From positions 320,001 to 384,000 of the forward strand of contig CAVOGR010000005.1 of the NCBI GenBank assembly GCA_963695555.1: 64,000 nucleotides of DNA, in the 5' to 3' direction. Position numbers and translations under genes: made by a program. How positions within the stretch are numbered: the stretch's first letter is position 1; every line of letters starts with the position of its first letter. Positions 22,966-39,952 of this stretch are shown piece after piece. The stretch is from an uncultured Gemmatimonadales bacterium (GTDB taxonomy: Bacteria; Gemmatimonadota; Gemmatimonadetes; Gemmatimonadales; GWC2-71-9). The notes under the pieces were generated by a model. It worked only from the letters and a program-made list of their open reading frames with translations. It ran no database searches and had not been told where the DNA came from.

Positions 22966-24129
22966 ATGCCACTCGAGCCGCACCGTACGGTCCACGGTCT
23001 GCTTCGCCCGTCAGGCTACGCACTCGTCGCTGCCCTGGTGCTCGGGGCGATCGAAACCGTCAAGGGCTATGTGGCAGGCTTGTCGGCCCCCAACGAATTC
23101 GGGTGGGACGAGGCCCTGCTCACCAACATGCCTTGGTGGCTTCTCTGGGCGCTCATGGCTCCGCTCGTATTTTGGCTCGTGCGCGTCGTCCCGTTGCGGG
23201 GCCCCGGCCGCGCGCGCGCTGTTGCCGGTCATTTCGTTGTGTCACTTGGGCTCTCACTGAGTCACCTCATAGTTTCCGCCGCTGGAGTCTGGCTGGCCGT
23301 TGCCCGCGAGTTCACTTCTCTGCAGGGCGTCATTCGCGATTTCTTGGCGGGATACCTCGTGAGCGACCTGGTTACCTACTGGGCGCTGGTCGCGGCCTAC
23401 TCAACCTACGATTCCTACCATCGGCTCCGTGAGACCGAGCGCGAGCGCCATGACTTGGCACTTCGGGCCACTCGGCTCGAGGCAGAGGCGGCACAGCTCG
23501 AGGCTAAGATGACGGAGGCCCGGCTCGACGCCTTGCGGATGGAGTTGAATCCCCATTTCCTCTTCAATACGCTGAATACAGCCTCCGCTCTTACGCAGGA
23601 GGGCGACGGAGCCCTGGCAGTACAAGTGCTGGCCCGGCTCTCCGAACTTCTCCGCCGAACACTGTACGACAGCACCGAACACGAGATCCCGCTCGAGGAG
23701 GAGATGGACCTGCTCGAGCAGTATCTCGCCATCCAGCGGATCCGTTTTCGAGACCGCCTGACGGTCGACGTGCAGCTGGCCCCGGAGGTCCGGAATGCGC
23801 TCGTCCCGACCTTGATTCTCCAGCCCCTCGCGGAAAACGCGATGCTCCACGGCGTCTCGGCTGTCCGTGGGAAGGCCGAGTTGCAGGTTCAGGCAACCCA
23901 GGTCGACGGAGATGTCCTCAGGCTCACCATGCGCGATAGTGGCTCGGGTTTGGAACGAAACGCCGGGCCTCACCGCGAAGGGATCGGGCTTGGGAACACC
24001 CGGGACCGACTGGCTGCGCTCTATGGCGACAAGGCACGCCTTCTGCTGCGGAGCCCTACTCAGGGTGGGACGGAAGTGATCCTCACGATGCCTCTCCGGT
24101 GGGACGAGGACGTTCGTGTCAAACCTTGA
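22966..24129 (+). CDS. LytS/YehU-family sensor histidine kinase
   Basis: TM helices, ELNPHFLFNTLN, LQPLAENAMLHG, GIGLGNTRDRL. Confidence 0.93.
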   Translation: MPLEPHRTVHGLLRPSGYALVAALVLGAIETVKGYVAGLSAPNEFGWDEALLTNMPWWLLWALMAPLVFWLVRVVPLRGPGRARAVAGHFVVSLGLSLSHLIVSAAGVWLAVAREFTSLQGVIRDFLAGYLVSDLVTYWALVAAYSTYDSYHRLRETERERHDLALRATRLEAEAAQLEAKMTEARLDALRMELNPHFLFNTLNTASALTQEGDGALAVQVLARLSELLRRTLYDSTEHEIPLEEEMDLLEQYLAIQRIRFRDRLTVDVQLAPEVRNALVPTLILQPLAENAMLHGVSAVRGKAELQVQATQVDGDVLRLTMRDSGSGLERNAGPHREGIGLGNTRDRLAALYGDKARLLLRSPTQGGTEVILTMPLRWDEDVRVKP

Positions 24130-24904
24130 TCCGCCTGAGCTCCGGATCCTGATCGTCGATGACGAGCCCCTTGCGCGTCAGTTCGTGCGCCGCGTTCTCG
24201 AGAGCCTCCCCAGGGTCCGAGTCGTTGGGGAATGTACCGATGGGGTCACGGCCATACGAGAGATCCAGCAGGGGTCCGTGGACCTGGTCATGCTCGATGT
24301 CCAGATGCCAGAGGTGAGCGGCTTTGATGTCATCGAGCGGGTTGGTGCCGAGGCCATGCCTGAGGTCATCTTCGTGACAGCCCATGAGGAATACACTCTC
24401 AGGGCTTTCGAGGTTCATGCACTCGACTATGTCGTCAAGCCATTCGACCCGGCTCGTCTCACGTCCGCCGTCGAGCATGCCCGAAGCAGGATCATGCCGG
24501 CCGACGGCCGAGACTCATCCCTGCCCGACCGGCTCACCTCACTCCTGGAGGGGCGCACCGGACCGCGGTTAGCCCGATACGCCAGACGTTTGATGGTCCG
24601 GCAGGGCGAGCAAATCCAGTTCGTGCCGCTGGAAGAGGTCCAATGGTTCGAAGCCGCTCGAAACTATGTTCGACTCCACGTTGGTACGGAGACGCACCTG
24701 GTCCGTATGTCGCTCAAGGGGCTGCTTCCTCTTCTCGATCCGGCCCGCTTCGTCCGAGTCCACCGCTCGGCCGTGGTGAACCTCGATTGGATCCGCGAGG
24801 TCCAGCCCTGGTTCGGTGGCGACTACGTGGTGGCCCTCGTTGGAGGGGAAAAGCTCCGAGTGGGGCGCACGTTTCGGGACGGATTGCTCAAACTAGCCCA
24901 CTGA
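24116..24904 (+). CDS. LytTR-family response regulator
   Basis: REC domain (VDDEPLAR, LDVQMP) plus LytTR domain (FVRVHRSAVVN). Confidence 0.95.
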   Translation: MSNLDPPELRILIVDDEPLARQFVRRVLESLPRVRVVGECTDGVTAIREIQQGSVDLVMLDVQMPEVSGFDVIERVGAEAMPEVIFVTAHEEYTLRAFEVHALDYVVKPFDPARLTSAVEHARSRIMPADGRDSSLPDRLTSLLEGRTGPRLARYARRLMVRQGEQIQFVPLEEVQWFEAARNYVRLHVGTETHLVRMSLKGLLPLLDPARFVRVHRSAVVNLDWIREVQPWFGGDYVVALVGGEKLRVGRTFRDGLLKLAH

Positions 24905-24911
24905 GTACAGC

Positions 24912-24946
24912 GCTGAGCGCGGCGCCTGCGTGGGCCCGCGCTCAGC
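24912..24946. terminator. Hairpin between convergent genes
   Basis: Perfect 11-bp stem GCTGAGCGCGG/CCGCGCTCAGC; no U-tract. Confidence 0.5.
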
Positions 24947-25907
24947 TGCTTCGCTGCCGAGCCCCCTTCTTGTAGAACTGGGCTTCTTTGGCGTACCCGG
25001 CCGTGAGAGCGGAGATTCGCTCGAGGGCCGGTGCGCCGGCCTGCTGGAACTCGGCGGCAATGGCTACGTTTTCCTCCAGCTGCTCGATAGTGTCACATCC
25101 GACGATCACCGTACTCACCGGTTGGGAGAGGACCCAGTGCATGGCCTCCCGCATTGAATTGAGCCCACCCTCGCGGAACAGCCTGCCCCGGGCCGGGATC
25201 TTCATGGCAATGACCCCCATGTTCTTCTGATTCGCGAGCGGGAGCAGCCCGTCAGTGAATGGGAGATAGTGCGGGTCGGCGGCATTGAGCGCCATGAGGA
25301 TGGTATCGAACTCGAAATCGCTGATGGCCTGCATGAGCACGGCCGGATCGTAGTGCCCGGTTACGCCGAGGAACCGCACCAATCCCTCTCGACGGGCTCG
25401 TTGCAGAGCCTCCAGCGCGCCACCCGGACCGCGAATCTGGTCCCACTCGTCGGCTCGTCCGAGCCGATGGAGCTGCCAGAGATCGAGATGGTCGGTCTGG
25501 AGCAGCCGGAGGCTCTCGTCGAGGAGCCGCATCGAGCCGTCGTAGGTCCGGTCGTGCGTCTTGCTCGCGAGGAATACCTCGCGGCGGCGCGTCGCCATCA
25601 CGTCGCCGATATAGCGTTGACTCAGTCCCCGGCCATAGGCCGCGGCCGTGTCGATGTAGTTGACGCCAAGGTCGATGGCCCGGTGGATGATGGCGACCGA
25701 TTCGTCCCGTTTGCCTGCCTGCTCGAGGGTGGCCTGACCTCCCAGGCTGAACAGCTTGACATCATGCCCGGTCCGTCCGAGCGGCCTGGTCGGCATGAGC
25801 GCGCTTGATTCGGTCGCGAAGCCGGCCTTGGCCTGGAGGAACACCGCGGCCGCACCCGCGGCCCCGACCTTCACGAAGTCCCGTCTGTTCAGCTCGTGCT
25901 CCGTCAT
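24942..25907 (-). CDS. Aldo/keto reductase with Tat signal
   Basis: NRRDFVK, YIDTAAAYG, FLASKT, LDLWQLH. Confidence 0.9.
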   Translation of the reverse strand: MTEHELNRRDFVKVGAAGAAAVFLQAKAGFATESSALMPTRPLGRTGHDVKLFSLGGQATLEQAGKRDESVAIIHRAIDLGVNYIDTAAAYGRGLSQRYIGDVMATRRREVFLASKTHDRTYDGSMRLLDESLRLLQTDHLDLWQLHRLGRADEWDQIRGPGGALEALQRARREGLVRFLGVTGHYDPAVLMQAISDFEFDTILMALNAADPHYLPFTDGLLPLANQKNMGVIAMKIPARGRLFREGGLNSMREAMHWVLSQPVSTVIVGCDTIEQLEENVAIAAEFQQAGAPALERISALTAGYAKEAQFYKKGARQRSS

Positions 25908-26139
25908 GACCGCCTCCGTGCGGCGAGTATTGGCCCCACTGCTGGCTACGAAGCCCCCTCGAGCCCAATCATTTCCCGGTCCACGTTAAGCGGTCATGAA
26001 ATCCGCATGAAGGGACCAGCCGTGTCCGGATCCTGGGCTGCGGCCTGGTTCTCCCGTCGTTACATTCACGGCGGGAGAATCACCGTTGGATGCCGAATGC
26101 CTCCTGGCCTCCGGTATCAATCACCACGGAGTCTTGACC

Positions 26140-26565
26140 ATGGGAAAGACGTATCAATCCATCGTGATCGACGCTCCTGCCGACCGCGTGTGGAAGACGA
26201 TCCGCAACTTTCACGACCTGAGCTGGTGTCCGAATGTGATCACCAAGGTCGAGCCGGTGGGGGACGTGCCCGGAGACCACGTCGGTGCCAAGCGGGTGCT
26301 CAATGGGGCATTTCATGAAACCTTGCAGGAGCTGAAGGACGAGGGGCGGACCTTCGCGTACTCGATCACCGATGGTCCGTCCCCGGTGTCCAAGGCCGAG
26401 GTGAGTAACTATGTGGGCCGGGTGACCGTCCGACCCATTACCCAAGGGGGTGGCACGTTTGTCGAGTGGTCGTCCAGCTGGAAGAAGAACGACCAGGCCG
26501 CACACGAATTCTGCCACACCATCTATTGCGCGCTGTTGGGCGAGATGAAACAGAGCCTCGAGTAG
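26140..26565 (+). CDS. SRPBCC/polyketide cyclase-like protein
   Basis: IDAPADRVWKTIRNF...GTFVEWSS. Confidence 0.85.
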   Translation: MGKTYQSIVIDAPADRVWKTIRNFHDLSWCPNVITKVEPVGDVPGDHVGAKRVLNGAFHETLQELKDEGRTFAYSITDGPSPVSKAEVSNYVGRVTVRPITQGGGTFVEWSSSWKKNDQAAHEFCHTIYCALLGEMKQSLE

Positions 26566-26574
26566 GGACGGCGC

Positions 26575-27642
26575 ATGAAGGTCTCACGCCGGCTCTCGTT
26601 CCTGGATCGATACCTGACCCTGTGGATTTTCCTCGCCATGGGGTTCGGCATCGCGATCGGTTATCTGGTCCCCGGCGCACCTGCATTGATCGAGCGCTAT
26701 CAGATCGGCACTACCAATATCCCGATCGCGATCGGCTTGATCCTCATGATGTACCCGCCCCTGGCCAAGGTCCGCTACGAGGCCCTCGGCCACGTGTTCC
26801 GGAACCGCCGGATCCTCGCCTTGTCCTTGTTCCAGAATTGGGTCGTCGGCCCGGTGGTTATGTTTTTGCTGGCGATCCTCCTGCTCCGCGACTTACCCGA
26901 GTACGCGGTGGGCCTCATCCTGGTGGGCCTCGCACGGTGCATCGCGATGGTCCTGGTGTGGAACGACTTGGCATCGGGCGACCGCGACCTCGTGGCCGGG
27001 CTGGTGGCATTGAACGCCATCTTCCAGGTGCTGTTCTACGGGGTGTACGCCTACATCTTCATCACCGTGCTCCCGCCGCTCTTCGGAATGGAGGGGGCCA
27101 TCGTGCCGGTGACGATCGGCGAGATTGCCCAGAGTGTGGCGATATACTTGGGCATCCCGTTTGTCGCCGGCTTGATCTCCCGCTTGAGCCTAATCCGCGC
27201 CAGAGGAAGGGAGTGGTACGAGCGGGTGTTCGTTCCAAAGATCAGTCCGATTACGCTGGTGGCCCTGCTCTTTACCATCGTGGTGATGTTCTCGCTCAAG
27301 GGCGACCTGATCGTCGAGCTCCCACTCGACGTGCTCCGCATCGCGCTGCCGCTGGCCATCTACTTCGTCGTCATGTTCTTCCTCACCTTCTTCGTGGCCC
27401 GTGGCAAGCTGGTCAAGGCGGGGTATGCCGAGAACGCCACCGTGTCATTGACGGCCGCGAGCAACGACTTCGAACTCGCGATCGCGGTGGCGGTGGCCGT
27501 GTTCGGTATCGGGTCGGGTGTGGCCTTCGCGACGGTCATCGGGCCGCTGGTGGAGGTGCCGGTCCTGATCGGGCTGGTCAACGTGGCCCTCTACTTCCGC
27601 CGGAAGTTCTACCGTGCCGAGGCGAGCGCGGGGGTCAGCTAG
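26575..27642 (+). CDS. acr3: ACR3-family arsenite efflux transporter
   Basis: [46 protein letters not shown]. Confidence 0.96.
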
Positions 27643-27981
27643 CCGCTGATCGCCCCGGCAGAGGGCTCCCGCCATTCCCAGGTGATGATTTGGTGTGCGA
27701 GCTTGACGCCAAACTAGAGGCTGAATTGGACCCATCATGATGTACCACAGTGTGTTACGCCACTATACGTCACCTAGATTCTCAGGTCAACCGGCTTGAG
27801 AGGGGTGTGGATGGCATCGTGTTGGCTGTGCGCTACCATCGACTGGTGCGCCAGCGCGATAATCTTTGGCCCAAATGGTGAAAGAAACTGCAGTCGCGAC
27901 AAGGAGTTGACAGGCGGCAACCTCTTGTAGATATTGTAGTTGGACGCAGCGATATCAAAGTCTTCGTTGGTCTGGGTCACT

Positions 27982-27997
27982 CGGTCCGGTACTTGCA
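27982..27997 (+). promoter_or_regulatory. Putative sigma-54 (-24/-12) promoter of the lasso precursor
   Basis: CGGTCCGGTACTTGCA has GG-N10-GC spacing and TTGCA; IHF-like TATCAAagtcTTC at 27953-27965. Confidence 0.4.
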
Positions 27998-28052
27998 ACC
28001 AAGCAATATCCGCACACATGTGTGACGTACCTTTCGGCCGCAAGGAGGCAGT

Positions 28053-28172
28053 GTGAATCACAAGACTTCGAAGACCAAGTGGGAAAGACCTCGTATGGAG
28101 GTCAAGCCGCTCGAGGACACTCGTGCTGGAAAAGGCGTTCAGAACGATGGTCAATTCGAGTTGCAGAGCTAG
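28053..28172 (+). CDS. Lasso peptide precursor (39 aa): MNHKTSKTKWERPRMEVKPLEDTR-AGKGVQNDGQFELQS
   Basis: Translated by hand; AAGGAGG RBS, GTG start, WxxP leader motif, Thr at -2, Asp at core position 8, C-terminal Ser; directly upstream of the lasso genes. Confidence 0.92.
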   Translation: MNHKTSKTKWERPRMEVKPLEDTRAGKGVQNDGQFELQS

Positions 28173-28195
28173 GTAGCCTGGATTCATCGAGGCTG

Positions 28196-28230
28196 AGCGT
28201 CCCCCCGGGAAGCCGGGGGGACGCTTTTTT
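28196..28230 (+). terminator. Rho-independent terminator after the lasso precursor
   Basis: Stem AGCGTCCCCCCGG / CCGGGGGGACGCT with GAAG loop, followed by a T run. Confidence 0.9.
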
Positions 28231-28334
28231 CTGTATGCCAGCCGGTCGTGGTGCACCAAGCGGGGTGGGGTCCGTATCTTGCTTACTTCGCCTTGGTCCC
28301 CCCACGTCCCTTTCCCGAGGTATGGCAGGAGCGA

Positions 28335-29237
28335 ATGTCGGATTGGACTGACTACCGGTATGCCGGGCTCAGAGTCCGCTCATGCGTTGAGCTTCCTGGT
28401 GTCGAGCGCCTGGCCACCGGGCCCGACGCGGATGTGACTGTCACATGGGCCGCTGTTCCCCCGGTTTCGACTCCCCGGAACCTTCCGGAGGCGTGGGGCA
28501 TGGTGGGTGATACGTTGGTAATCACGGTCAAAGACGTGGGCCGGTTCGCAGTGTCTTCTGATGGGCAAGTCGTGGTGGATCCCGTCCACGGCGCCCGCCC
28601 CGCCGACCTGGCGCTCTACGTGATGGGTCCTGTATTCGGGGCGGTCTGTCATCGGCACGGGATATTACCGCTCCACGCCAGTGCCGTTCATATCGGCAAC
28701 GCCTGCGTGGCGTTTGCCGGACACTCAGGAGCGGGAAAATCGACGCTGGCCGGGTTTCTGACGCGCCGCGGCTTCGGCCTGGTGGCCGACGATATCTGTG
28801 TCGTGGCTCCCGGAGATGAACTGGCCGTCTGGCCCGGCCCGCCTCGCCTCAAGTTGAGCACCGTCGGCCTGGAGGCGATGGATGAGGATTGGACCGTGCT
28901 GGCACATGCGGGCGGTACTCGGGAGCGATACCAACTCACCCGCGAGCGCGATGGCGGCAGCTCCGATCCCGTCCCCCTGCACCGGCTCTACGTCATGGCA
29001 CAGGGCCCGGAACTCCGATTAGAACCAGTCACCGGACTGGATGCCGTCCAGGCGGTCACCAGCCAGACGTACTGTTTGGGCTTTGTGGACGCGCTGGGCG
29101 TCTCGGCACGTCATTTTCAGTTGAGTGTGAATGTGGCGAAGCGATTGGAGATCCGGCGGCTCATCAGGCCGCTGGGCTTTCAGCACATGGATCGAATACT
29201 CCACATGCTCGAGTCTGATTGGCAGGAGGGCGCTTGA
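28335..29237 (+). CDS. HprK-like lasso peptide kinase (PadeK/ThcoK-type)
   Basis: LPLHASAV, GHSGAGKSTL, LVADD; located in the lasso cluster. Confidence 0.88.
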   Translation: MSDWTDYRYAGLRVRSCVELPGVERLATGPDADVTVTWAAVPPVSTPRNLPEAWGMVGDTLVITVKDVGRFAVSSDGQVVVDPVHGARPADLALYVMGPVFGAVCHRHGILPLHASAVHIGNACVAFAGHSGAGKSTLAGFLTRRGFGLVADDICVVAPGDELAVWPGPPRLKLSTVGLEAMDEDWTVLAHAGGTRERYQLTRERDGGSSDPVPLHRLYVMAQGPELRLEPVTGLDAVQAVTSQTYCLGFVDALGVSARHFQLSVNVAKRLEIRRLIRPLGFQHMDRILHMLESDWQEGA

Positions 29238-29275
29238 CCCGTCATACCCACCGACGATCTGGAAGGGAGAAAAGC

Positions 29276-29605
29276 GTGAACGGCATTTCGAAGATTAGTC
29301 CCGCGGCCGTGTTGGTCCGGAACGACGAGCCGGTGTCGGTTGAAGTCGAACGCAGCGTCGTGATGATGAGCCTGGACCTCGGCAAGTACTTCGGGTTGAA
29401 CGAGGTCGGGAGCAGGATTTGGGAGCTGCTCGAACGGCCGCGCCCGATGGCCGATCTGTGTGCCGTGCTGCAGCAGGAGTTCGACGTGGACCCCGATGCC
29501 TGCCACGCAGAGGTGAGCGAGTTCCTCCTGGCCCTGGCCAACGAGGGCCTGATCCAGATCGACAATGACCCGCCTAGCCCGATTCGTCAGACTCCCAAGC
29601 CCTGA
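29276..29605 (+). CDS. Lasso RRE/PqqD-family B1 protein
   Basis: GKYFGLNEVGSRIWELLERP...EFDVDP...FLLALANEGLI. Confidence 0.93.
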   Translation: MNGISKISPAAVLVRNDEPVSVEVERSVVMMSLDLGKYFGLNEVGSRIWELLERPRPMADLCAVLQQEFDVDPDACHAEVSEFLLALANEGLIQIDNDPPSPIRQTPKP

Positions 29606-30002
29606 TCGCGGGGCGCTGATCGAGGCAGCCCTCGCCCTGGGACTCTCGAGCCTGCTCATTCGGACGGTCGGCTTCTCCCGGATCGCTCGTCGGCTTGGTC
29701 GGCACATGGCGGAAGGGCCGACAGCCGTTACGCCCGAGTCGGTGTCGGACGCGGCTCGCGTCAAGTGGGCGGTCGATACGGCGGCGCGGGTACTTCCCTG
29801 GAAGCCGGTCTGCTTGCCCCAGGCAATAGCGGCAACGCTGATGCTGAAGCGACGGAACGTTGCCAGCACACTCTATCTTGGCGTGGACCCCGCGCGGGCG
29901 CTCGACGCTCACGCCTGGGTACGAGTTGGCGAGATGACGGTCACCGGAGGCCCGGTGGACCAACGCTTCGCCGTGGTCTCGACCTTTGCGCGCCCGGGGT
30001 GA
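29565..30002 (+). CDS. Lasso leader peptidase B2 (transglutaminase-like)
   Basis: VCLPQAIA...LYLGV...AHAWV. Confidence 0.93.
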   Translation: MTRLARFVRLPSPDRGALIEAALALGLSSLLIRTVGFSRIARRLGRHMAEGPTAVTPESVSDAARVKWAVDTAARVLPWKPVCLPQAIAATLMLKRRNVASTLYLGVDPARALDAHAWVRVGEMTVTGGPVDQRFAVVSTFARPG

Positions 30003-30039
30003 TGCCCAATGCCCCGATGGAACAACTCGTGACCGCCTC

Positions 30040-31986
30040 ATGAGCGGAATCTGTGGATTCCTCTACCACGACGATCGTCCGGTGCCGCGGGAGCCCGTCC
30101 ACCGGATGCTCGATGCCCTGACGTCCTGGGGTGACGGCCCCACGGAAGCCTGGGTGGCGGAGAGCGGAGATCCGCCAGTGGGCCTTGGGTGCCGGGTGAT
30201 GCGGGTGACGCCCGAGGACATGTTCGAACGCCAGCCGCTCCGATCGCGGGACGGCCAGCTGGTACTGGTGGCAGATGCGCGGATCGACAATCGCGCCGAG
30301 TTGGCCTCGGCGCTGGGGCTGGGCCAGAGCGCAGAACTCCCTGACAGCGCCTATATCCTGGCCGCCTACGAGGCGTGGGGAGATGCCGCTCCCGAGCGCC
30401 TCTTGGGCGATTTTGCCTTTGCCCTGTGGGACGCTCGGCGACGCTCCCTTATTTGCGCGCGGGATCACATGGGTCAGCGAGTCCTGTTCTACCACGCGAT
30501 CCCTACTGCACTGGCCGTGGCGTCCTCCATCCCTGCACTGTTGGCGTTGCCGCACGTGGTGCCAAGGCTGAATGAACAGAAGGTCGCCGAATCCCTCGTA
30601 TCGATCCAGGAAGCTGGAACCACCTTCTACCAAGACGTGCGACGCCTACCTCCGGGTCACCTCCTGGTGGCCACAGCTGATAGCCTCGTCACACACCAGT
30701 ACTGGAGTCCGGAGCCAACCACACGGATCGTGTTGGGCTCCGATCGTGAATACGAAGAGGCATTCCTGGACGTGTTCGGCGCCGCAGTCGGTGCCCGGCT
30801 TCGGTCGAGCGGCCCGGTCGGGATCATGTTGAGTGGCGGGTTGGACTCATCGGCCGTCGCGGCCGTCGCGGCAAAGCAGCTCCGGGCTCAGGGCCGTCGC
30901 TTGACGGCGTTTCACGCCGCACCGCGGTTGGGGTTCCAGGGCAAGGCGCAGTCGGGGTGGATTCCGGATGAATCGGATGATGTGCACGCCATTGCGGCCG
31001 TGCACGAGAACCTCGATGTGACGGTGTGCCGCCCGGATGGCCGGACCCCACTCGATCAGATCGAGGCTCACTTTGCGTTGCTGGGGGCGCCCATCCGCAA
31101 TGCCAGCAACCTTCCCTGGGTGGAAGCGATTCAGGAACAGGCACGAGACCGTGGCATCCGGGTATTGTTGAACGGGCAGAAGGGGAACGCGACGATCAGC
31201 TTCTCCGGCCTCCGAACGCTGCGGGAGACTGCGGTCCGGCTCCGCTGGCGTCAGCTGTATCGTGAACTCAGGGCTGCGTCCGCGCGTGGCAAGCGGCCGG
31301 TCGAGATGCTCAAGCATCAAGTGGTGCTCCCGCTCGTTCCACCCGTGCTCCTCAAGGGCTACGGCCGCCTACGGGGCAGCCGGCCCGAGCCCATCTGGAC
31401 CCGCATGTGCTCGGGCATCAATCCCGCGTTCGCCGCCGAGTGGAAGCTCGAAGAGCTGGCGCGGGAGCGGGGACGAGACGCGATGACCCACATGCGGGCG
31501 TCCGCAACCGACTACCGCGTGCAGGTGCTCACGGCCACCGGCGACGGGCCGGATATTCCGCACACGTTTCGGGCACGCTACGGCGTTGAAGGTCGCGACC
31601 CGACGGTTGACGTGCGGGTCGTCGAGTTTTGTCTGGCGATTCCGGGGTCACAGTATCTGCGCGACGGCCGGGACCGGTGGCTCATTCGGAGGGCTATGGC
31701 GTCACGGCTTCCCGAGCGCGTGGTACACCGGACCACCCGCGGTGCTCAGTCCGCCGACTGGAGCGAATGGTTCGGTACCATGCGGGGCGAGATCGAGGCA
31801 GAGCTCGGGCGATTGGAGCGCTCTGACACGGCGCAGCGATGTCTCGACCTGCCGCGCTTGCGAGGACTGGTCGATCGCTGGCCGGGCGCGCTCGGACCCG
31901 AGCACCAGGCCGACTACGCCCTGACTCTGCTCAACGCCATCGTGATGGGGCGGTTCATCCGGTGGTTTGAGGAGCGGTACGCGTGA
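30040..31986 (+). CDS. Lasso cyclase C (asparagine synthetase-like)
   Basis: MSGICG (Ser replaces the Ntn Cys), ADARIDNR, LLGDFAFA, LSGGLDSSAV. Confidence 0.93.
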   Translation: MSGICGFLYHDDRPVPREPVHRMLDALTSWGDGPTEAWVAESGDPPVGLGCRVMRVTPEDMFERQPLRSRDGQLVLVADARIDNRAELASALGLGQSAELPDSAYILAAYEAWGDAAPERLLGDFAFALWDARRRSLICARDHMGQRVLFYHAIPTALAVASSIPALLALPHVVPRLNEQKVAESLVSIQEAGTTFYQDVRRLPPGHLLVATADSLVTHQYWSPEPTTRIVLGSDREYEEAFLDVFGAAVGARLRSSGPVGIMLSGGLDSSAVAAVAAKQLRAQGRRLTAFHAAPRLGFQGKAQSGWIPDESDDVHAIAAVHENLDVTVCRPDGRTPLDQIEAHFALLGAPIRNASNLPWVEAIQEQARDRGIRVLLNGQKGNATISFSGLRTLRETAVRLRWRQLYRELRAASARGKRPVEMLKHQVVLPLVPPVLLKGYGRLRGSRPEPIWTRMCSGINPAFAAEWKLEELARERGRDAMTHMRASATDYRVQVLTATGDGPDIPHTFRARYGVEGRDPTVDVRVVEFCLAIPGSQYLRDGRDRWLIRRAMASRLPERVVHRTTRGAQSADWSEWFGTMRGEIEAELGRLERSDTAQRCLDLPRLRGLVDRWPGALGPEHQADYALTLLNAIVMGRFIRWFEERYA

Positions 31987-33812
31987 CGCCGAGCGCGAAG
32001 TCCGGCTCGTCCAGCGGTGGGCTGAAGGTCAGCCTCGCGCCGCTCATGCGCGGGATCAGGCTCATCTGGAAGAGTTCCCCAGGCTGGTCGCTGACTCAGG
32101 TCGTCGTCCTCGTGGTCCAGGGGGTGCTTCCCCTGCTCTCGCTGTACCTCCTGAAGCTCATCTTCGACGCAGTGGAAGCCGCGTTGACGGACTCACTGGG
32201 AGCGGCGGGCCTCCGCCGAGTGGTCATTCTCATCGCCGTCGCGGCCGGTGTCGCCGTTTTCTCTGCCGTCATGCGGGCACTGGGCGCCCTGGTGCGTGAA
32301 CTCCAGGCGTTGACCCTCACCGACACCGTCCATGAGGTGCTGCACGACAAGTCCGTCGAGGCCGACCTCGAGTACTACGAGAGCCCCGAATACCATGACA
32401 CCCTCCATCGCGCTCAACAGGAGGCGCTGGTCCGTCCCACCCGAATCGTTGCGGAGGTCGCGCAGGTCGGGCAGAATGCCGTGTCCCTGCTCGCCATCAT
32501 GGGACTCCTCATCTCCCTGCATTGGGTGTTTGCGGCGGTGCTGCTGGCCGCGGTCGTTCCGGGACTCTTCGTCAAGATCTACTATTCCCGGAACCTCTAC
32601 CGCTGGCTCCAGCGCCGCACCCCGATTATTCGGCGGACCCACTACCTCAATTCGCTCCTGACCGGCGGCGCCTTCGCGAAGGAGGTTCGCTTGTTCGGGC
32701 TCGGCGCCACGCTCAAGGAACGGTTCCGCGACATGCGCCGCATCGTGCGCGTCGAAAAGATGCGCCTCGTGACCCGGCGCTCGGTGTTCGAGCTGGTCAC
32801 CCAGGTAGGGGGCGTGCTCGCCGTCTTCGCCTCGCTCGTCTTCATCGCGCAGCGTGCCGTGGCCGGCGCCATCACCATCGGTGACATGGTCATGTACTTC
32901 GGCGCCTTCCAGCGGGGTCAGGACTTCTTCCGCGAAATGCTCAGCGGTCTGGCAGACCTCTACGAGGACAACTTGTTCCTGTCTGACCTCGATGCCTTCA
33001 TGACCCTGAAGCCCCGGGTCATCGACCCCCCGGATCCTCGACCGTTTCCCCGTTCCATCGAGCAGGGAATCACCCTCGAGAACGTAACGTTTCACTATCC
33101 GGGACTCGAGCATACCGTCCTCGAGGATGTCTCGTTCCAGATCCGCCCCGGCGAACATGTGGCACTGGTCGGCGAAAACGGCTCGGGGAAGACCACCCTC
33201 GTCAAGCTACTGTGCCGTCTCTATGATCCCGATCACGGCTCCATCCGGGTTGATGGCACCGATCTGCGCGACTACGCGCTCGGGGATATTCGCCGGCAGA
33301 TCAGCGTGATCTTCCAGGATTTCGTCCACTACCACATGTCGGCAAGGGATAACGTGTGGTTCGGCGATGTCAGCGTCGACCCGGCGAGCGAGCGGATCAG
33401 CGCCGCGGCGGCCAGGACCGGCGCCGACCGGCTGATTCGTGGTTTACCACATGGGTACGACACGGTGCTCGGCCGGGAGTTCGAGGAAGGAGCGGAACTC
33501 AGCCTCGGCGAGTGGCAGAAGATTGCCTTGGCCAGGGCCTTCCTGCGCGAGACGCAGATCATCGTGCTCGACGAGCCGACAGCCTCGCTGGATCCGCGCT
33601 CGGAGGCCGAGGTGTTCGCGCGGTTCCATGAGCTTGCGCGAGGCCGCACGGCGATCCTCATCAGCCACCGGTTGTCGACGATTCGGATGGCCGACCGCAT
33701 TCTGGTGCTGGCCAATGGGCGGATCGTCGAAGCCGGTACGCACGACGAGCTGATGCGGTCCGGAGGGCAGTACGCCGAATTGTACGAAATTCAAGCGAGT
33801 AAGTACCGGTGA
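31983..33812 (+). CDS. ABC exporter (TMD+NBD), lasso D
   Basis: TM region, GENGSGKTT, LSLGEWQKIALARA, LDEPTASLD. Confidence 0.93.
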   Translation: MTPSAKSGSSSGGLKVSLAPLMRGIRLIWKSSPGWSLTQVVVLVVQGVLPLLSLYLLKLIFDAVEAALTDSLGAAGLRRVVILIAVAAGVAVFSAVMRALGALVRELQALTLTDTVHEVLHDKSVEADLEYYESPEYHDTLHRAQQEALVRPTRIVAEVAQVGQNAVSLLAIMGLLISLHWVFAAVLLAAVVPGLFVKIYYSRNLYRWLQRRTPIIRRTHYLNSLLTGGAFAKEVRLFGLGATLKERFRDMRRIVRVEKMRLVTRRSVFELVTQVGGVLAVFASLVFIAQRAVAGAITIGDMVMYFGAFQRGQDFFREMLSGLADLYEDNLFLSDLDAFMTLKPRVIDPPDPRPFPRSIEQGITLENVTFHYPGLEHTVLEDVSFQIRPGEHVALVGENGSGKTTLVKLLCRLYDPDHGSIRVDGTDLRDYALGDIRRQISVIFQDFVHYHMSARDNVWFGDVSVDPASERISAAAARTGADRLIRGLPHGYDTVLGREFEEGAELSLGEWQKIALARAFLRETQIIVLDEPTASLDPRSEAEVFARFHELARGRTAILISHRLSTIRMADRILVLANGRIVEAGTHDELMRSGGQYAELYEIQASKYR

Positions 33813-35113
33813 CCGACACGATGACGGCAAGGGAGACCGCCTCTCTCGAGAGCCCCGCCTTCCAGGATCAACGGGTGGCGCTCGACTTCCTGGTCGCCAA
33901 CCTCCGCCAGAACCGGTCCGGCGCCACCATGAAAGGCCTGACGCCCGCCGTGTGGGACAGTGTGGCGGCCCAGTCGGCCCAGCAGAAGCTGGGGCCCCTT
34001 GCCTATCATCGGCTCATCACTGGACTGGACGCGCTGCCGATGCCGGAGCCGGTTCGCGAGCGGTTGCGAACCTTCTATGCCGTAGGGCAACTGCGCACTA
34101 CGCTGCTGCTCAGAGATGCGACCCATGTGATTGGAGCGCTGCAGGCGGCCGGTCTGTCCGTGATGGTGTTGAAGGGCCTCCACCTTGCCATGCAGGTGTA
34201 TTCGGAACCGGGACTCAGGACCATGTCCGACATCGACATCATGGTGCCGGAGCGCGACCTGGCAACGGCCGAGGCGGTGCTCGTGGGTCAGGGTTTCGGT
34301 CCTCAGCCGAGGCCCGATATTCAGGAGTTCTGTCGCCGGTCCAACCACCTTGCCCGCCTCAGCCGTCCGAAGGCGGTACCGGTGGAGGTGCACTGGACCA
34401 TCGAGCGTCCGACCAGCCCGTTCACCATCGACGTTGACGCGCTCTGGAGGCGTTCGCAGACGATTGCGCTCGGGGGCCTCGAGGTCCTGGCCTTGTGCCC
34501 GGAGGACCTGCTACTCCACCTGTGTCTGCACACCTCGTATCATCATCGCTTCGATCGGATGGCGCTCAAGGGACTCGTGGATATCGACATGGTGGTGGCA
34601 GCGTTCGAGGGTCGCCTCGATTGGCGGCAAGTCGCTCGGACGGCGCGGGACTGGAGCGCCGGGTCATATGTCTACAGCACCTTGCGGCTGGCGACCATGA
34701 TCCTCGAAACACCGGTGCCCAAAACCGCGCTTGCTGCCCTGGATCGGAAGATGGAGGACGAGGCCGTCGTCGAGCTGGCCCGGCAGTTCGTCCTCACGCC
34801 GATCGTCGATCTCCCGCCCGGCTTCCGTGAGATCCGGCTGTCCAGGTCGCTACCGAAACAGGCGGCCAGCGTTGCGCGGGGGATCTTCCTGCCAAGACGT
34901 CACTTGCGGCGCCTCTACCGCCTGCGGGAGGGATCGCCGTTGGTGTACTTGTACTACGCGGTGCGCGTCTTCGATTTGCTGCGTCACCGCGGCGCCCTCG
35001 GCCTTCAGGTCCTGCTGCACACGCGACGGGTGCAGCCCGCCTTGTTCCGGGAAGCAGCCCGAAAGCGGATCGCCGCGTGGGTCGGGACAATGCCAGCCAC
35101 TCCAGAGGAGTAG
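33809..35113 (+). CDS. Nucleotidyltransferase family protein (NTP_transf_5-like)
   Basis: VLKGLHL...LRTMSDIDIMV, VEVHW, LLHLCLH, LVDID. Confidence 0.88.
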   Translation: MTDTMTARETASLESPAFQDQRVALDFLVANLRQNRSGATMKGLTPAVWDSVAAQSAQQKLGPLAYHRLITGLDALPMPEPVRERLRTFYAVGQLRTTLLLRDATHVIGALQAAGLSVMVLKGLHLAMQVYSEPGLRTMSDIDIMVPERDLATAEAVLVGQGFGPQPRPDIQEFCRRSNHLARLSRPKAVPVEVHWTIERPTSPFTIDVDALWRRSQTIALGGLEVLALCPEDLLLHLCLHTSYHHRFDRMALKGLVDIDMVVAAFEGRLDWRQVARTARDWSAGSYVYSTLRLATMILETPVPKTALAALDRKMEDEAVVELARQFVLTPIVDLPPGFREIRLSRSLPKQAASVARGIFLPRRHLRRLYRLREGSPLVYLYYAVRVFDLLRHRGALGLQVLLHTRRVQPALFREAARKRIAAWVGTMPATPEE

Positions 35114-35146
35114 CACGATCTAAGGCTTCCTCGCAGGCGCAGTGGC

Positions 35147-35932
35147 TCAGGGCTTTCGGGCCTCGATCAGCGCCGACACCACGTAGTCCTCGAGGTTCCC
35201 GCCGGCTGACCACTCCTCGATCAGCTCGCGCTGCTGGTCCTGGGGCCGGATGCTCACGTCCACGAACCCCGCCTCGGCCAAGATCGATTCGATCTGCCCC
35301 GCCGTGATCGCACCGGACACACAGGCGGCGTAGGCCTTCAGGTCTTCCTTCAATGCATCGGGCAGCGGTGCGGAGGCGACCACGTCGGCCACCGCCAGCC
35401 GCCCGCCCGGCTTGAGCACCCGGTAGACCTCGCGGAACACCTGCGCCTTCTCGGGCGACAGGTTGATGACGCAATTGGACATGACGACGTCAGCGGTGCC
35501 GTCGGCCACCGGCACGTGCTCGATCTCACCCAACCGGAAGCTCACGTTGGATATGCCGGCCTTCCGAGCATTGTCGCGGGCCTTGGTGATCATCTCGGGT
35601 GTCATGTCGACGCCGATGACCGTGCCTGAATCGCCCACCTGGCGCGCGGCCAGGAAACAATCGAAGCCGGCGCCTGAGCCCAGGTCCACGACCGTTTCGC
35701 CGGAACACAGTGAAGCGATCGCGTGCGGGTTGCCGCACCCGAGGCCCAAGTTGGCGCCCTCCGGTACTCCGGCAAGTTCCGCGGCCGAGTATCCCATGGC
35801 CGTGGCGAGTTGCGCAGGTTTCGTGGTATCGGGGCCGCATCCGCACCCGCAGCCAGCCTGGTCCTTCACGGCAATGTCGCCGTAGCTCTTACGGACGGTG
35901 GTGCGGAGCTCGTCCGGTGAGGCGTGCTTCAT
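35147..35932 (-). CDS. arsM: Arsenite S-adenosylmethionine methyltransferase
   Basis: LGLGCGNP, DLGSGAGFDC, GVDMTPEM, SNCVINLSP, CVSGA. Confidence 0.95.
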   Translation of the reverse strand: MKHASPDELRTTVRKSYGDIAVKDQAGCGCGCGPDTTKPAQLATAMGYSAAELAGVPEGANLGLGCGNPHAIASLCSGETVVDLGSGAGFDCFLAARQVGDSGTVIGVDMTPEMITKARDNARKAGISNVSFRLGEIEHVPVADGTADVVMSNCVINLSPEKAQVFREVYRVLKPGGRLAVADVVASAPLPDALKEDLKAYAACVSGAITAGQIESILAEAGFVDVSIRPQDQQRELIEEWSAGGNLEDYVVSALIEARKP

Positions 35933-36291
35933 CTCGATGTTCTCCTTTTCGCTTGGCGTGCTGTTGGGCTGACGAAACCGTAAAAGAAGTCTCCCAGGTC
36001 GCGCAACACGTCCGGCTCAACCCAGCAGCGGATCTCACGGCCACACCGTTCGGTCGCGATCAGGCCGGCCCGGGTCAGTTCTTTCAGGTGATGGGAGACG
36101 GTGGACGGGGCGATATCCAGCTCCGCCGCGAGTTCCCCGACACATCGCGGCACGGCCTCATCGGCAGTGCACGCGGTGCCGGGTGCGCAGCAGCTGGACA
36201 GCCGGTGGAAGATCTGGAGCCGGTGCGGGTGGCCGAGGGCCTTGAAGGCATCCGCCAGGGGGGGCACAGCAATAGTTTGATGATTCGACAT
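35929..36291 (-). CDS. arsR: ArsR/SmtB repressor
   Basis: FKALGHPHRL, CC..C and CVGEL Cys residues, STVSHHLKEL. Confidence 0.92.
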   Translation of the reverse strand: MSNHQTIAVPPLADAFKALGHPHRLQIFHRLSSCCAPGTACTADEAVPRCVGELAAELDIAPSTVSHHLKELTRAGLIATERCGREIRCWVEPDVLRDLGDFFYGFVSPTARQAKRRTSR

Positions 36292-36326
36292 ACATCAAAA
36301 TATATGGACCTACCACGCCGCGGCAA
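36272..36326 (-). promoter_or_regulatory. arsR promoter and operator
   Basis: Inverted repeat TTTGATG-N10-CATCAAA (36276-36299) spanning the start codon; minus-strand TTGCCG-N16-TATATT. Confidence 0.7.
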
Positions 36327-36382
36327 CCCCCGGCCCATGCAGACGGGGGTCGCGCGGGCGGGCCGGTCAGCTGATCAGCGGG

Positions 36383-36949
36383 TCAAAACGAGCGATATCG
36401 CGGTGGTGCCATCCCATTCATCCGGAAATAGGGCACCAGCTGGCCGCGGGTCCAGTAGCCGTGCTCCAGCGCCTGGAGATAGACCCGCCACTTGGGCAGC
36501 TTCTGGCCGAACAGGGTGGTCTCCGCCTGGAATTCGCTGGCCGGGAGGTCGCGGAGACTCTGCGTTACCCAGTCATACGCGGCAGTAACCGCTCGGACCA
36601 GGGCTTCCTTGTCGTTCAGATACACGGCCGTATCGCCGAAACTCGGCGTGGGAACGCCGAGGATTCCGATGGCTACGAAGAGCGCGTTGTCCACGGCGGC
36701 ATGCTCCACCTGCTCGGCGAAGTCCCGCACCTCGGGAACCGGGGCCCAGCGGAGCGCCGAATCGGGAATGGCCCGCGCAAAGTCGATGTCCATGGCCTTG
36801 CCCTGCTCGAGTCCCTGGAGCAGCAGCGCTCGGATGCTTTCAACGGCGATGGCGGGCGTCGAGGCACGTTGCTCCTGTGCCGCGGCCGGCCGGGTGCTCG
36901 TTCCAAACCAAACAACCCCCATAAAGACGATCGCAAATCCAGCACGCAT
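36383..36949 (-). CDS. DinB-family secreted protein
   Basis: Signal peptide, FAEQVEH, EHGYWTRGQLVPYFRMNGMAPP. Confidence 0.85.
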   Translation of the reverse strand: MRAGFAIVFMGVVWFGTSTRPAAAQEQRASTPAIAVESIRALLLQGLEQGKAMDIDFARAIPDSALRWAPVPEVRDFAEQVEHAAVDNALFVAIGILGVPTPSFGDTAVYLNDKEALVRAVTAAYDWVTQSLRDLPASEFQAETTLFGQKLPKWRVYLQALEHGYWTRGQLVPYFRMNGMAPPRYRSF

Positions 36950-37229
36950 GACTCAGCCTCCTTGTTGACCACCTGGCCCGCTGGGCCGGTGCATCGGGCG
37001 GTTTTCGTGATAGCCGGGGGCATTCCCCGGCAGCGGTGCCGCCAAAAGAATAGAACGGGGACTGACCCAGGGCCAGAGCGGCTGGCTTGACGGCCTCTTG
37101 ACCCCGGCGTCCCAGGATGGGGCTGAGGTCCGGCGGATCAGTGCTTCATGGGGAATTCACGATGCCTTGGTCGGCATGATGGTAACAGTATGGAGACGGG
37201 TTGACCGCGGGTCGAGCTGGAGGTGCAGG

Positions 37230-38033
37230 GTGTGGGCGTTCGATCTCTCGAAGTGGTACGGCGACTGTGTGAGCGACCAGGGCACGGCGTTCATCGGGTA
37301 TTGGGCACGCGTGCGCTGGGGACCGCTCGTCCTGCCGTATGCTGCCACCCTCCTTCAGGTCCGAGGGCAGGCCACCCAGGAGCGACACACCCTGATTCCC
37401 TGCCCCGAGCCGGTGGTCCGACCACCCGAGCTTCATTGGGATGCGAAAAGGATTCGGGCCCAGGGAGTCTGGCATGTCCAGGTGCCGGGACACAGCCACC
37501 GTCTGGTCCAGTTGCCCGAGGGCTCGATCGACTGGAATTGCCAGGCGCCAAAGGCGGAGTGCCGCATCGACCTCGCGGACGGCACACGGATCTCGGGGCT
37601 GGGATACGCGGAACATATGCGCCTGACGATCCGTCCGTGGCAGCTTCCGTTCGACGAGCTCTGCTGGGGACGTTTCCTCGCCGCCGATGACGCACTCGTG
37701 TGGATCGAATGGCGTGGGCGGCACCCTCGCCAGTGGGTTTTCTACAACGGGCACGAGGAGCCCGGGCCCTCCACCATTGATCCGAATCGTATCGTGTTGC
37801 CTGACGATCGCGGTACTCTCGAACTCACAGACTCTATCGTGCTCCGGGAAGGACGGCTGCTGACCGGCCCGCTGCGGGCGATTCCTGCGGCCTCGCTCCT
37901 GCTCCGCGGCGGGTTGAGACACGCAGACGAAGCCAAGTGGCTGTCGCGCGGGACGTTTACCACTCCGACCCGCACGAGTTCGGGGTGGGCCGTGCACGAG
38001 GTCGTGCGGTTGACGCGGGGTGAGCCATGCTAG
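37230..38033 (+). CDS. Hypothetical protein, possibly tocopherol-cyclase/lipocalin-like
   Basis: GGAGG plus GTG start; LSKWYGDCV, GLGYAEH, LCWGRF; coupled to the next gene. Confidence 0.55.
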   Translation: MWAFDLSKWYGDCVSDQGTAFIGYWARVRWGPLVLPYAATLLQVRGQATQERHTLIPCPEPVVRPPELHWDAKRIRAQGVWHVQVPGHSHRLVQLPEGSIDWNCQAPKAECRIDLADGTRISGLGYAEHMRLTIRPWQLPFDELCWGRFLAADDALVWIEWRGRHPRQWVFYNGHEEPGPSTIDPNRIVLPDDRGTLELTDSIVLREGRLLTGPLRAIPAASLLLRGGLRHADEAKWLSRGTFTTPTRTSSGWAVHEVVRLTRGEPC

Positions 38034-39952
38034 GGAAGCTCCTCTATGGATTCCTCTTCGTGGTGCTGGCCCCGGCGCTCCTCGTGTGGTGGGCCGCGGC
38101 GACCGCCGCGACGGTCACGCTGCCGACGACCCCTTTCCTTTGGGTTGGCCTTCCCGTGATTGCCGTCGGCATTGCGCTGATCGCGGCCGGTATGGGCGCC
38201 CTCATGGTGCTCGGCCACGGCCTTCCCATGAACCCCTACCCGCCGCCGGTCTACGTGGCCCGCGGGATCTATCGGTTGACACCGCACCCCATCTATGTCG
38301 GCTTCGTCCTGTGCTGCTTCGGGACGTCCATCGTGCTCGAGTCGGCGAGCGGGCTCTGGCTCGTCTCTCCGATGGTGGCGTTGGCGCTGACCGCGCTCGT
38401 CATGGGGCACGAACGCCATGACTTGATCCGCCGCTTTGGTAAGGGGGCCATACATCGACCGCTGGTGTCGCTCCCGCCGGATCGCCCGGATGCACCCATG
38501 TGGTGGGATCGCGCGTCGGTGTACCTGCTGGTGTTCCTGCCCTGGGCGGCAGCATTCGAAGCGGTGTACGTGTTGGGTGTGCCTCCGGACGGGATCGTCG
38601 GCTATCTCCCGTTCGAACGCGCTTGGCCGGTGCTCGAGTGGACCGAGGCGGTCTATGCGAGCGTCTACCTCTTCGTCCTGGCGGCGCCGCTGGTCGTGGG
38701 TACGCAGCGCGCGCTCCGCACCATGGCGGTGACCGGGCTGGTCGCGACGGTCGTGGTCACCCTTATCTACCTTACGGTTCCCGTAATCGTACCGCCGCGG
38801 CCATTCGAACCCCAATCGCTGCTTGGCCGAGCGCTCATGTTCGAACGAGCCATGTCGAACACGGTCGGCGCGTTTCCCGCGTTTCATGTCATCTGGAGTC
38901 TCATTGCCGCCGACGCCTGGGCCACCCGGTCTCGCGCCTGGGGCGTGACTGCATGGCTCTGGGCCGCGCTCATCACCGTCAGCTGCATCACGACCGGCAT
39001 GCATGCACTGATCGACCTCGTCGCGGCCGTATCCGTGTTCCTGGTGGTTCGGCATTACCGCCGGGTGTGGGATCTCATGCGACGCGGTGTGGAGGCCATC
39101 GCGAACTCCTGGCACGAATGGCGATGGCGCGGCCTGCGCCTCATCAACTACGGTCTCTACGCCGCGCTCGCCGCGGCGGGAGGCCTCTGGCTTTCCGGAT
39201 CGCTCGGCGGTCCACGGGTGTTCTGGCAAGTTGGGTTCGTCTATCTCGCCGGCCTGCTCGGTGCGGCGCTTTGGGCCCAGCAACTGGAGGGCTCATCCAA
39301 GCTGTCCCGTCCGTTCGGATACTACGGGAGCGTGCTCGGCGCCGTGGCCGCGTCGATCGTCGTCGGCCTCGTGGGTGGAGACACGGTGTTCATCGTTGCC
39401 CTCGTCGCCATGGCCGCCCCGTGGATCCAAGCCATCGGACGCCTGCGCTGCCTGGTTCAGGGCTGCTGCCACGGCAGCGAGGCGCCCGAGGCCGTCGGGA
39501 TCAGGTACTGGGAACCACGCTCCAGGGTGTGCGGGCTGGCCCAGCTCCAGGGCATCCCGCTACATCCCACCCCGCTCTACTCCATTCTGGGAAACCTCGT
39601 GATCGGTGTCTTGCTCTGGCGGCTCTGGTCGCTCGGTGCGGCGGTCGGCTTGGTCGCCGGGGTGTACTTCATGTTGGCAGGAGTCGCTCGCTTCATCGAA
39701 GAGTCCTACCGCGGTGAACCGCAGACACCATGTATCGGTGGCCTGCGACTCTACCAGTGGATGTCGCTCATGTCGATGGGATTCGGTATCGCGCTCACAC
39801 TACTCCCCGGCGCGAGCGCGCCGGGCCTCGTTCTGTCGTTCGATGTGAGGCTGGTGGTGGGCGCTATCCTGTATGGCATTCTGGCCGGGTTCGCCATGGG
39901 CGTTGACTTCCCGGCCTCGGCGCGGCGGTTTGCCCGGCTCGCATCACCCTAA
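38027..39952 (+). CDS. Membrane fusion protein: PEMT/ICMT-like methyltransferase + PAP2-like + Lgt-like domain
   Basis: PMNPYPP...GIYRLTPHPIYVGF; AFPAFHV...TGMHALIDL; IGRLRCLVQGCCHG...HPTPLYS...RFIEESYR. Confidence 0.8.
   Translation: MLGKLLYGFLFVVLAPALLVWWAAATAATVTLPTTPFLWVGLPVIAVGIALIAAGMGALMVLGHGLPMNPYPPPVYVARGIYRLTPHPIYVGFVLCCFGTSIVLESASGLWLVSPMVALALTALVMGHERHDLIRRFGKGAIHRPLVSLPPDRPDAPMWWDRASVYLLVFLPWAAAFEAVYVLGVPPDGIVGYLPFERAWPVLEWTEAVYASVYLFVLAAPLVVGTQRALRTMAVTGLVATVVVTLIYLTVPVIVPPRPFEPQSLLGRALMFERAMSNTVGAFPAFHVIWSLIAADAWATRSRAWGVTAWLWAALITVSCITTGMHALIDLVAAVSVFLVVRHYRRVWDLMRRGVEAIANSWHEWRWRGLRLINYGLYAALAAAGGLWLSGSLGGPRVFWQVGFVYLAGLLGAALWAQQLEGSSKLSRPFGYYGSVLGAVAASIVVGLVGGDTVFIVALVAMAAPWIQAIGRLRCLVQGCCHGSEAPEAVGIRYWEPRSRVCGLAQLQGIPLHPTPLYSILGNLVIGVLLWRLWSLGAAVGLVAGVYFMLAGVARFIEESYRGEPQTPCIGGLRLYQWMSLMSMGFGIALTLLPGASAPGLVLSFDVRLVVGAILYGILAGFAMGVDFPASARRFARLASP

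Follow-up and report, generated by a model that had tools for sequence, protein, structure and literature searches.

The window, a 64,000-nucleotide stretch of DNA from an uncultured Gemmatimonadales bacterium, contains a 39-codon open reading frame (ORF) at positions 28053-28172 on the forward strand, running from GTG to TAG. Its translation was identical to the peptide given in the original prediction, which had described it as a hidden 39-residue lasso precursor, and the AAGGAGG ribosome-binding site and GTG start named there were both present. This gene, precursor A, is followed on the same strand by K, B1, B2, C, D, and N. All seven genes are intact, and their junctions are coupled. The features of the locus are given below as coordinates, strand, and description.

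27661..35146, no strand: whole cassette between acr3 and arsM, from comparison with the same-genus genome G002
27907..27935, forward: candidate sigma70-like promoter, TTGACA-17-GATATT, 118 nt upstream of the precursor A start
28042..28048, forward: Shine-Dalgarno sequence AAGGAGG, 4 nt upstream of the precursor A GTG
28053..28124, forward: leader of precursor A, 24 aa, W(-15)xxP(-12)xM(-10) and T(-2), from the sequence
28125..28172, forward: core of precursor A, 15 aa plus stop, with a predicted Ala1-Asp8 macrolactam and Ser15 phosphosite
28195..28232, forward: GC-rich hairpin of 14 bp with a U run, between A and K, from fold computation
28335..29237, forward: K, HPr-kinase-like peptide kinase (PF07475, 27.7 bits, below the cut-off of 33.3)
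29276..29605, forward: B1, stand-alone RiPP recognition element (RRE) of the PqqD family (PF05402, E 2.8e-19)
29565..30002, forward: B2, leader peptidase with Cys83 and His116 (NF033537, 100 bits, above the cut-off of 33)
30040..31986, forward: C, AsnB-like lasso cyclase (NF033535, E 1.4e-119, 400.5 bits, below the cut-off of 525)
31983..33812, forward: D, ABC exporter, whose start overlaps the C stop by four bases
33809..35113, forward: N, PsmN-like nucleotidyltransferase (PF14907, E 3.9e-55), whose start overlaps the D stop by four bases

The Shine-Dalgarno spacing of 4 nt recurs in the homologous precursors of L028 and L030. The promoter candidate matches the sigma70 consensus at 10 of 12 positions, and two such sites were found against 0.2 expected. 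A second promoter-like match lies on the reverse strand at 27762-27790, in the left end of the cassette, and is directed at the 3' end of acr3. None of 200 shuffled sequences folded as stably as the hairpin between A and K (z = -5.46), and comparable hairpins lie 3' of homologous precursors; the hairpin is a candidate terminator or transcript-stabilizing element.

To gauge chance, we scanned the genome for start/stop pairs of 30-60 codons. Among 57,419 pairs, 39 carried a loose lasso motif, 16 of these 39 ended in Ser, and one of the 16, precursor A, had a Shine-Dalgarno sequence, the filters having been picked with precursor A already known. Among 388 stop-to-stop segments at window positions 26.5-36.5 kb, precursor A alone combined a W/YxxP-x9-T leader with an end of 8-25 residues. 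The original prediction had allowed that another ORF might be the substrate of B1, B2, and C; we looked for one within the cassette and found none. The exact protein was not found in a collection of 15 billion proteins, implying that precursor A is easily missed. Sequence searches of Pfam, NCBIfam, and the PDB with precursor A or its alignments returned no family.

The kinase K carries H114, G129, G132, G134, K135, S136, D152, and D153 with the spacing described for the BsfK motif (PMC10368454), and thus the His-Lys-Asp-Asp set (H114, K135, D152, D153). B1 scored 72.2 bits against NF033536, under the cut-off of 80, and matched two PDB entries about equally well, TbiB1 (5v1u, E 7e-13) and 9x90 (E 3e-11). 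The cyclase C lacks the N-terminal glutaminase Cys of asparagine synthetases and has an SGGLDS loop at residue 265. The operon thus contains the linked B1, B2, and AsnB-like C of class II lasso clusters with their catalytic motifs, although B1 and C score under the cut-offs of their best-matching models. The nucleotidyltransferase N, which is additional to the genes named in the original prediction, is PsmN-like by family and by its DxD motif at residues 141-143.

The precursor family and its core

The 12 closest cyclase loci, drawn from one-genome-per-species data, are 49-55% identical to C and are all titled Gemmatimonadota. Each has the order K-B1-B2-C, followed by D-N where the contig reaches. 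At 11 of the 12, a homologous precursor with its hairpin lies directly upstream of K, located by position prior to any profile. The twelfth locus has just 129 nt upstream, and its precursor sits at another contig end of the same genome (L160). In the 12-sequence set used for profile building, which was found by position, W, P, T, Gly4, and Asp8 are invariant. These observations indicated that precursor A is a real, conserved lasso precursor heading an intact cassette, and it is predicted to be translated.

The distribution of the family is patchy. Profile matches were obtained in 10 of 400 genomes of the window's taxonomic family and in 7 of 400 genomes across the phylum, two of the seven being weak and not precursors; the L023 precursor recurs in G408, which is placed in the window's own family. 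In trees of K, B1, and B2, a long branch leads to the window operon, which is placed as sister group to the remaining Gemmatimonadota operons; bootstrap support for that exact position is weak (60). A profile search of 1.84 billion proteins yielded 32 matches, 30 of them precursor-like, and two repeat proteins (P0025 and P0029) were removed before core counts. The resulting 59 precursors gave 56 distinct cores, 49 of 15-21 residues and seven of 9-11 residues. With W set at -15, Thr occupies -2 in 58 of 58 sequences, including one partial sequence placed by hand. The 49 long cores contain Asp8 in 48 cases and Gly2, Gly4, and a terminal Ser in 47 each, counts that are partly circular because they derive from profile matches. 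Ring-face positions 3 and 5-7 vary freely across the family.

Core residue 1 of the long cores is Gln in 12 cases and otherwise includes Asn, His, Arg, Asp, and Val. A Gln at the N-terminus might form pyroglutamate and so compete with ring closure; a literature search found no paper on this subject. One member, at L033:4071-4196, terminates in Ser-Pro rather than Ser and so provides a natural probe of the kinase's need for a free C-terminal Ser. When 67 cyclase loci of greater distance were scanned by motif, 10 of them yielded candidate Ser-ended precursors, 13 in total and several with short cores. One of the distant records, from Ancylobacter (L074:3785-4400), has two tandem predicted 13-residue, Ser-ended cores with Asp8 near a kinase.

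The leader of precursor A supported the lasso assignment and cleavage site of the original prediction. W-15, P-12, M-10, and T-2 fall in the register of PbaA, a crystallized leader of the paeninodin type with W-15, P-12, and L-10 (PMC13381572), and this register together with T(-2) places the cut before Ala1. The RRE-binding [Y/W]xxPx[hydrophobic] motif, the penultimate Thr, and the acid at core position 7-9 that mark class II lasso precursors are all present. Asp8 is the only acid within positions 7-9, and Ser15 is the sole Ser/Thr of the core, which has no Cys and hence no disulfides. Glu12 was considered as the ring acid and rejected, as it would give a 12-residue ring, beyond the 7-9 residues described for lasso rings (PMC10368454), and the family Glu shifts between positions 12 and 13. 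The near-invariance of Asp8 and of the terminal Ser in the long cores makes an Ala1-Asp8 ring and a phosphorylated Ser15 likely, in agreement with the ring acid and kinase site proposed earlier.

The assignment of the plug is revised. Fifteen cores have 15 residues, like that of the window; gene context was verified for three, and the other 12 were retrieved from a protein library that lacks genomic context. A profile search for this subfamily across 400 genomes of the order gave no new locus. Gly2, Gly4, Asp8, Gln14, and Ser15 are present in all 15. Position 11, where Phe had been proposed as a plug, is Phe in just five, with eight other residues in the remainder, and is Gly in 26 of the 49 long cores. 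Position 12 is Glu (10), Asp (4), or Gln (1), and position 13 is Leu (6), Phe (5), Met (2), Val (1), or Arg (1). The steric block is therefore most likely Leu13 flanked by Glu12 and Gln14, rather than Phe11.

The view that a 15-residue core is at the minimal size for lasso peptides did not hold, since huascopeptin has 13 residues, chaxapeptin has 15, and the predicted L074 core has 13. To our knowledge, neither chaxapeptin nor huascopeptin carries a phosphate. The ring and the terminal Ser do lie close together, 7 residues apart as compared with 15 in pseudomycoidin, but this closeness is common to the whole subfamily and found also in predicted cores of proteobacterial kinase loci. The predicted [M+H]+ values are 1559.745 for the cyclic peptide, 1639.711 with phosphate, and 1801.764 and 1963.817 with one and two hexoses.

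Cassette site, sister strain, and cyclase-less relatives

The cassette lies between arsenic-resistance genes, acr3 (26575-27642) on one side and arsM/arsR (35147-36291) on the other. In G002 (98% complete), the likeness to the window ends at 27660 and restarts at 35147, with an unrelated 1.4 kb between, which includes a frame of 405 codons whose start is flavoprotein-like (GxGxxG). Since the bounds 27661-35146 include A, the precursor and six enzyme genes are gained or lost as one unit. A repeat search at the cassette ends found no terminal repeats, just short repeats at chance level. No close B2 or C orthologue was found in any of four same-genus genomes searched (89-98% complete).

A metagenome scan with K returned a single stretch among 62 candidates, L102, from a near-identical strain (97% DNA identity). 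This strain retains the precursor A ORF (L102:1064-1183), which differs from that of the window by two synonymous leader changes and two ring replacements, K3T and Q6K. One ring Lys is thereby kept, and the leader and tail are unaltered at the protein level. Synonymous and replacement changes number 9:4 in K, 5:0 in B2, 33:17 in C, and 2:2 in A. Both promoter hexamers, the Shine-Dalgarno sequence, and the hairpin are unaltered, while the 5' spacer drifts.

Five metatranscriptome runs contain part of the stretch, and four were mapped to window positions 24000-39000. In the best run, the operon equals the flanking genes in coverage, with 30 of 30 bins covered at a depth of about 4-15; the other three are patchy. 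Because the best run covers operon and flanks alike, it might reflect DNA carry-over and has no bearing on expression.

The genome of the window has a second operon of RRE, B2, kinase, and nucleotidyltransferase genes (L118:7305-10284, in G000:C12), with no adjoining cyclase or obvious precursor. A third locus, G000:C1:672667-677454, contains an AsnB-like gene with an N-terminal Cys, a distant PqqD-like gene, and a kinase-like gene; no B2 was found there. The two RRE/kinase loci in C12 and C1 are distant. A search of the genome with the precursor profile gave no second copy that was credible.

Two relatives of the operon lack a cyclase, and a third locus provides a complete counterpart:

L119:4160-7740 (G192:C8), derivative operon
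L153:1709-5740 (G667:C12), derivative operon
L120:5013-12560 (G637:C5), complete relative

Both derivative operons have the order A'-K-B1-B2-N. C and D are absent, and B2 leads directly into N, which in L119 overlaps the B2 end. Their cores have 11 residues and end E-I-G-S, with Asp8 replaced by a Glu at position 8 that is followed by three residues. L120, which shares its genus and chromosomal flanks with L119, contains a 10-residue, acid-free precursor and a normal 16-residue precursor with six enzymes; L119 is missing exactly the normal precursor and C-D. In the tree, L119 and L153 are sisters (bootstrap 100) nested in a clade of complete operons (100). Among 39 genomes of the L119/L120 genus, 10 operons were found, and two are of the cyclase-less kind. 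Searches of the rest of G192 and G667 gave no close cyclase, the best matches being 32-33% in G192 (97% complete) and 35% in G667 (74% complete). The cyclase-less operons thus apparently represent one deletion event at one chromosomal site, seen in two genomes. The family contains four further Ser-ended cores of 9-10 residues (P0023, P0031, P0034, P0035). The retention of the kinase and nucleotidyltransferase in L119 and L153 suggests that the decorated tail can work without a knot.

Proposed pathway and alternatives

Judging from the sequence, A heads a lasso operon of the kinase/nucleotidyltransferase type. We consider it quite probable that the product is a class II lasso peptide of 15 residues in which Ala1 and Asp8 close the ring and Ser15 carries a phosphate and possibly a hexose. 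By analogy with homologous enzymes, B1 would bind the WxxPxM leader, and K would phosphorylate Ser15 of the linear precursor, once or several times, before B2 and C act, as do PadeK, ThcoK, and SyanK; PadeK accepts its precursor in linear form but does not modify the threaded peptide (PMC9266682, PMC8498205). BsfK modifies Ser3 rather than the C-terminus, which counts against Ser15 as the target, although Ser15 is the only candidate Ser/Thr here. B2 would then cut after Arg(-1), two residues past Thr(-2), and C would join Ala1 to Asp8 around the tail. N might decorate the phosphate with one hexose or two, or with a nucleotide subject to later exchange, as proposed for PsmN. PsmN adds hexose in vivo, with its own sugar transfer left unresolved (PMC6993621), and deletion of lppN in a related system had no effect in the account given (PMC13381572), suggesting that the activity of N may need partners. 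D would export the product.

In the folded peptide, conservation suggests that the ring rests at residues 12-14, with Leu13 as the plug, helped by Glu12 and Gln14. The modified Ser15 would follow just after the plug, where it would add a further stopper and probably serve in recognition. Paeninodin and pseudomycoidin are described as lacking antibacterial activity (PMC6993621 for pseudomycoidin), and our best guess for the role of the product is therefore an exported, non-antibiotic signal or surface-associated peptide. This is the weakest step of the proposal and is held with low confidence.

It is possible, if doubtful, that the modified Ser15 is itself the real lock: the unmodified seven-residue tail would slip out to leave a branched cycle, and K and N would be needed for topology. 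Unmodified pseudomycoidin is indeed a branched cycle, in which the L21F exchange restores threading (PMC6993621), so that threading here is not guaranteed. Ser15 lies just two residues beyond Leu13, Phe, Trp, and Tyr are all absent past the ring in 17 of the 48 long cores that contain Asp8, many loops are Gly-rich, and an eight-residue ring may unthread on heating, as described for caulosegnin I. However, position -3 is bulky in all 15 fifteen-residue cores (L/F/M/V/R) and could suffice as a plug. The cyclase-less operons, moreover, keep K and N with nothing there to lock, so locking cannot be the sole role of these enzymes. The same operons favor an idea that we regard as unlikely, in which the decorated C-terminal end (acid, hydrophobe, Gln, phospho-Ser, sugar) is the functional unit and the ring a dispensable protective carrier: they retain K-B1-B2-N and Ser-ended cores after losing C, D, and Asp8, L119 does so at the chromosomal site of the complete, two-precursor L120, and the four further short Ser-ended cores point the same way. 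Yet these operons reflect a single evolutionary event in two genomes, which could mark decay or the gain of a new function; their short cores finish in I-G-S rather than Q-S, ring residues are invariant in most family members, and nothing bears directly on the window copy.

Two further alternatives concern the cut and the state of the cassette. If the cut fell one residue further on, the product would be a Gly1-Asp7 lasso of 14 residues with a seven-membered ring. This would accommodate the nearly invariant Gly2 (47 of 49) beside the variable position 1, and a Gly1-Asp7 ring has a precedent in huascopeptin (PMC12427821). It would also place Thr at -3 and W at -16, contrary to the PbaA register and the conserved penultimate Thr, and pseudomycoidin starts Ala1-Gly2 with an Ala1-Asp9 NOE (PMC6993621); we judge this highly improbable. 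A silent or decaying cassette in this strain, with precursor A untranslated, seems very unlikely. The RNA runs yielded no extractable expression signal, and the patchy spread and the result for the same-genus genomes (close B2/C orthologues in 0 of 4) would fit such decay. Conversely, the seven genes are intact with coupled junctions, synonymous changes equal or exceed replacements relative to L102, and the regulatory signals are kept while the spacer around them drifts.

A bolder synthesis, on balance improbable, would describe the product as a minimal phospho-glyco-lasso whose conserved information resides in the last four residues, with the sugar-phosphate on Ser15 acting both as the stopper that keeps a seven-residue tail within the ring and as recognized signal; one Gemmatimonadota lineage would have lost the knot while keeping leader processing, K, and N, in a lasso-to-linear transition at a single chromosomal site. 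If true, the same pathway would exist with and without a knot, and the reason for lasso phosphorylation and glycosylation could then be tested directly. A 2026 paper (PMC13381572) states that paeninodin-type phosphorylation has no known biological role; for pseudomycoidin, locking is still a proposal (PMC6993621). A modified Ser just seven residues from the ring offers a clean system for testing the role of the modification, in which the cyclase-less relatives form a natural, built-in control.

Comparison with known systems

The gene set and chemistry have already been described, and the core sequence is in no curated family. Gemmatimonadota lasso clusters are mentioned as counts (29 MAGs; PMC11316326), and the literature that we searched, which covered few subscription papers, treated them at the genome level with no characterized peptide. 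The locus extends lasso clusters with a WxxP leader, a kinase, and N to this phylum, which has no characterized peptide in that literature.

Linear polyphosphorylated peptide (LPP) systems combine an RRE, a kinase, and a nucleotidyltransferase without a cyclase, as do L119 and L153. They are known from Bacillota and have a SipW-like signal peptidase, YxxP leaders, and an exporter (PMC13381572). In contrast, the lasso B2 and the WxxP leader persist in L119 and L153, which lack D and derive by deletion within the precursor A family, while the window operon, with its cyclase, B2, and WxxP leader, falls outside the LPP type. Chaxapeptin and huascopeptin, as products of Streptomyces, are likewise very short class II lasso peptides (PMC12427821).

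The bsf cluster of Bradymonas resembles the window operon in its Gram-negative host, in having A, B1, B2, C, D, K, and N, and in kinase motif spacing. BsfA differs in its Ile(-2), YxxPxL leader, and 21-residue core phosphorylated at Ser3, and its mature lasso is described as never detected (PMC10368454).

Paeninodin and the PadeK, ThcoK, and SyanK systems share with the window WxxPx[L/M] at -15/-12/-10, T(-2), the His-Lys-Asp-Asp motif of an HPr-type kinase, and a C-terminal Ser (PMC9266682, PMC8498205, PMC13381572). Paeninodins are described as confined to Bacillota (PMC13381572), the pade cluster as reported has no N, and the core here is much shorter. Precursor A also falls outside the paeninodin sequence family, as model NF033524 gave no match at E <= 10 and matched one of 12 relatives at E 0.54. 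Since the operon ends in a PF14907 N, its closest model is pseudomycoidin rather than paeninodin alone.

The features of the pade and psm clusters, namely an HPr-type kinase motif, a C-terminal Ser, and a PsmN-like N, are all present here, and the operon would work like a cluster of the pseudomycoidin type. The pseudomycoidin cluster of Bacillus pseudomycoides has the order psmC-A-K-B1-B2-N-D (PMC6993621), as against A-K-B1-B2-C-D-N in a Gemmatimonadota host. Both share seven gene types, split B1/B2, an N with DxD, an Ala-Gly core start, and a terminal Ser, whereas an Asp9 ring with a 15-residue tail in pseudomycoidin contrasts with a predicted eight-residue ring and seven-residue tail here.
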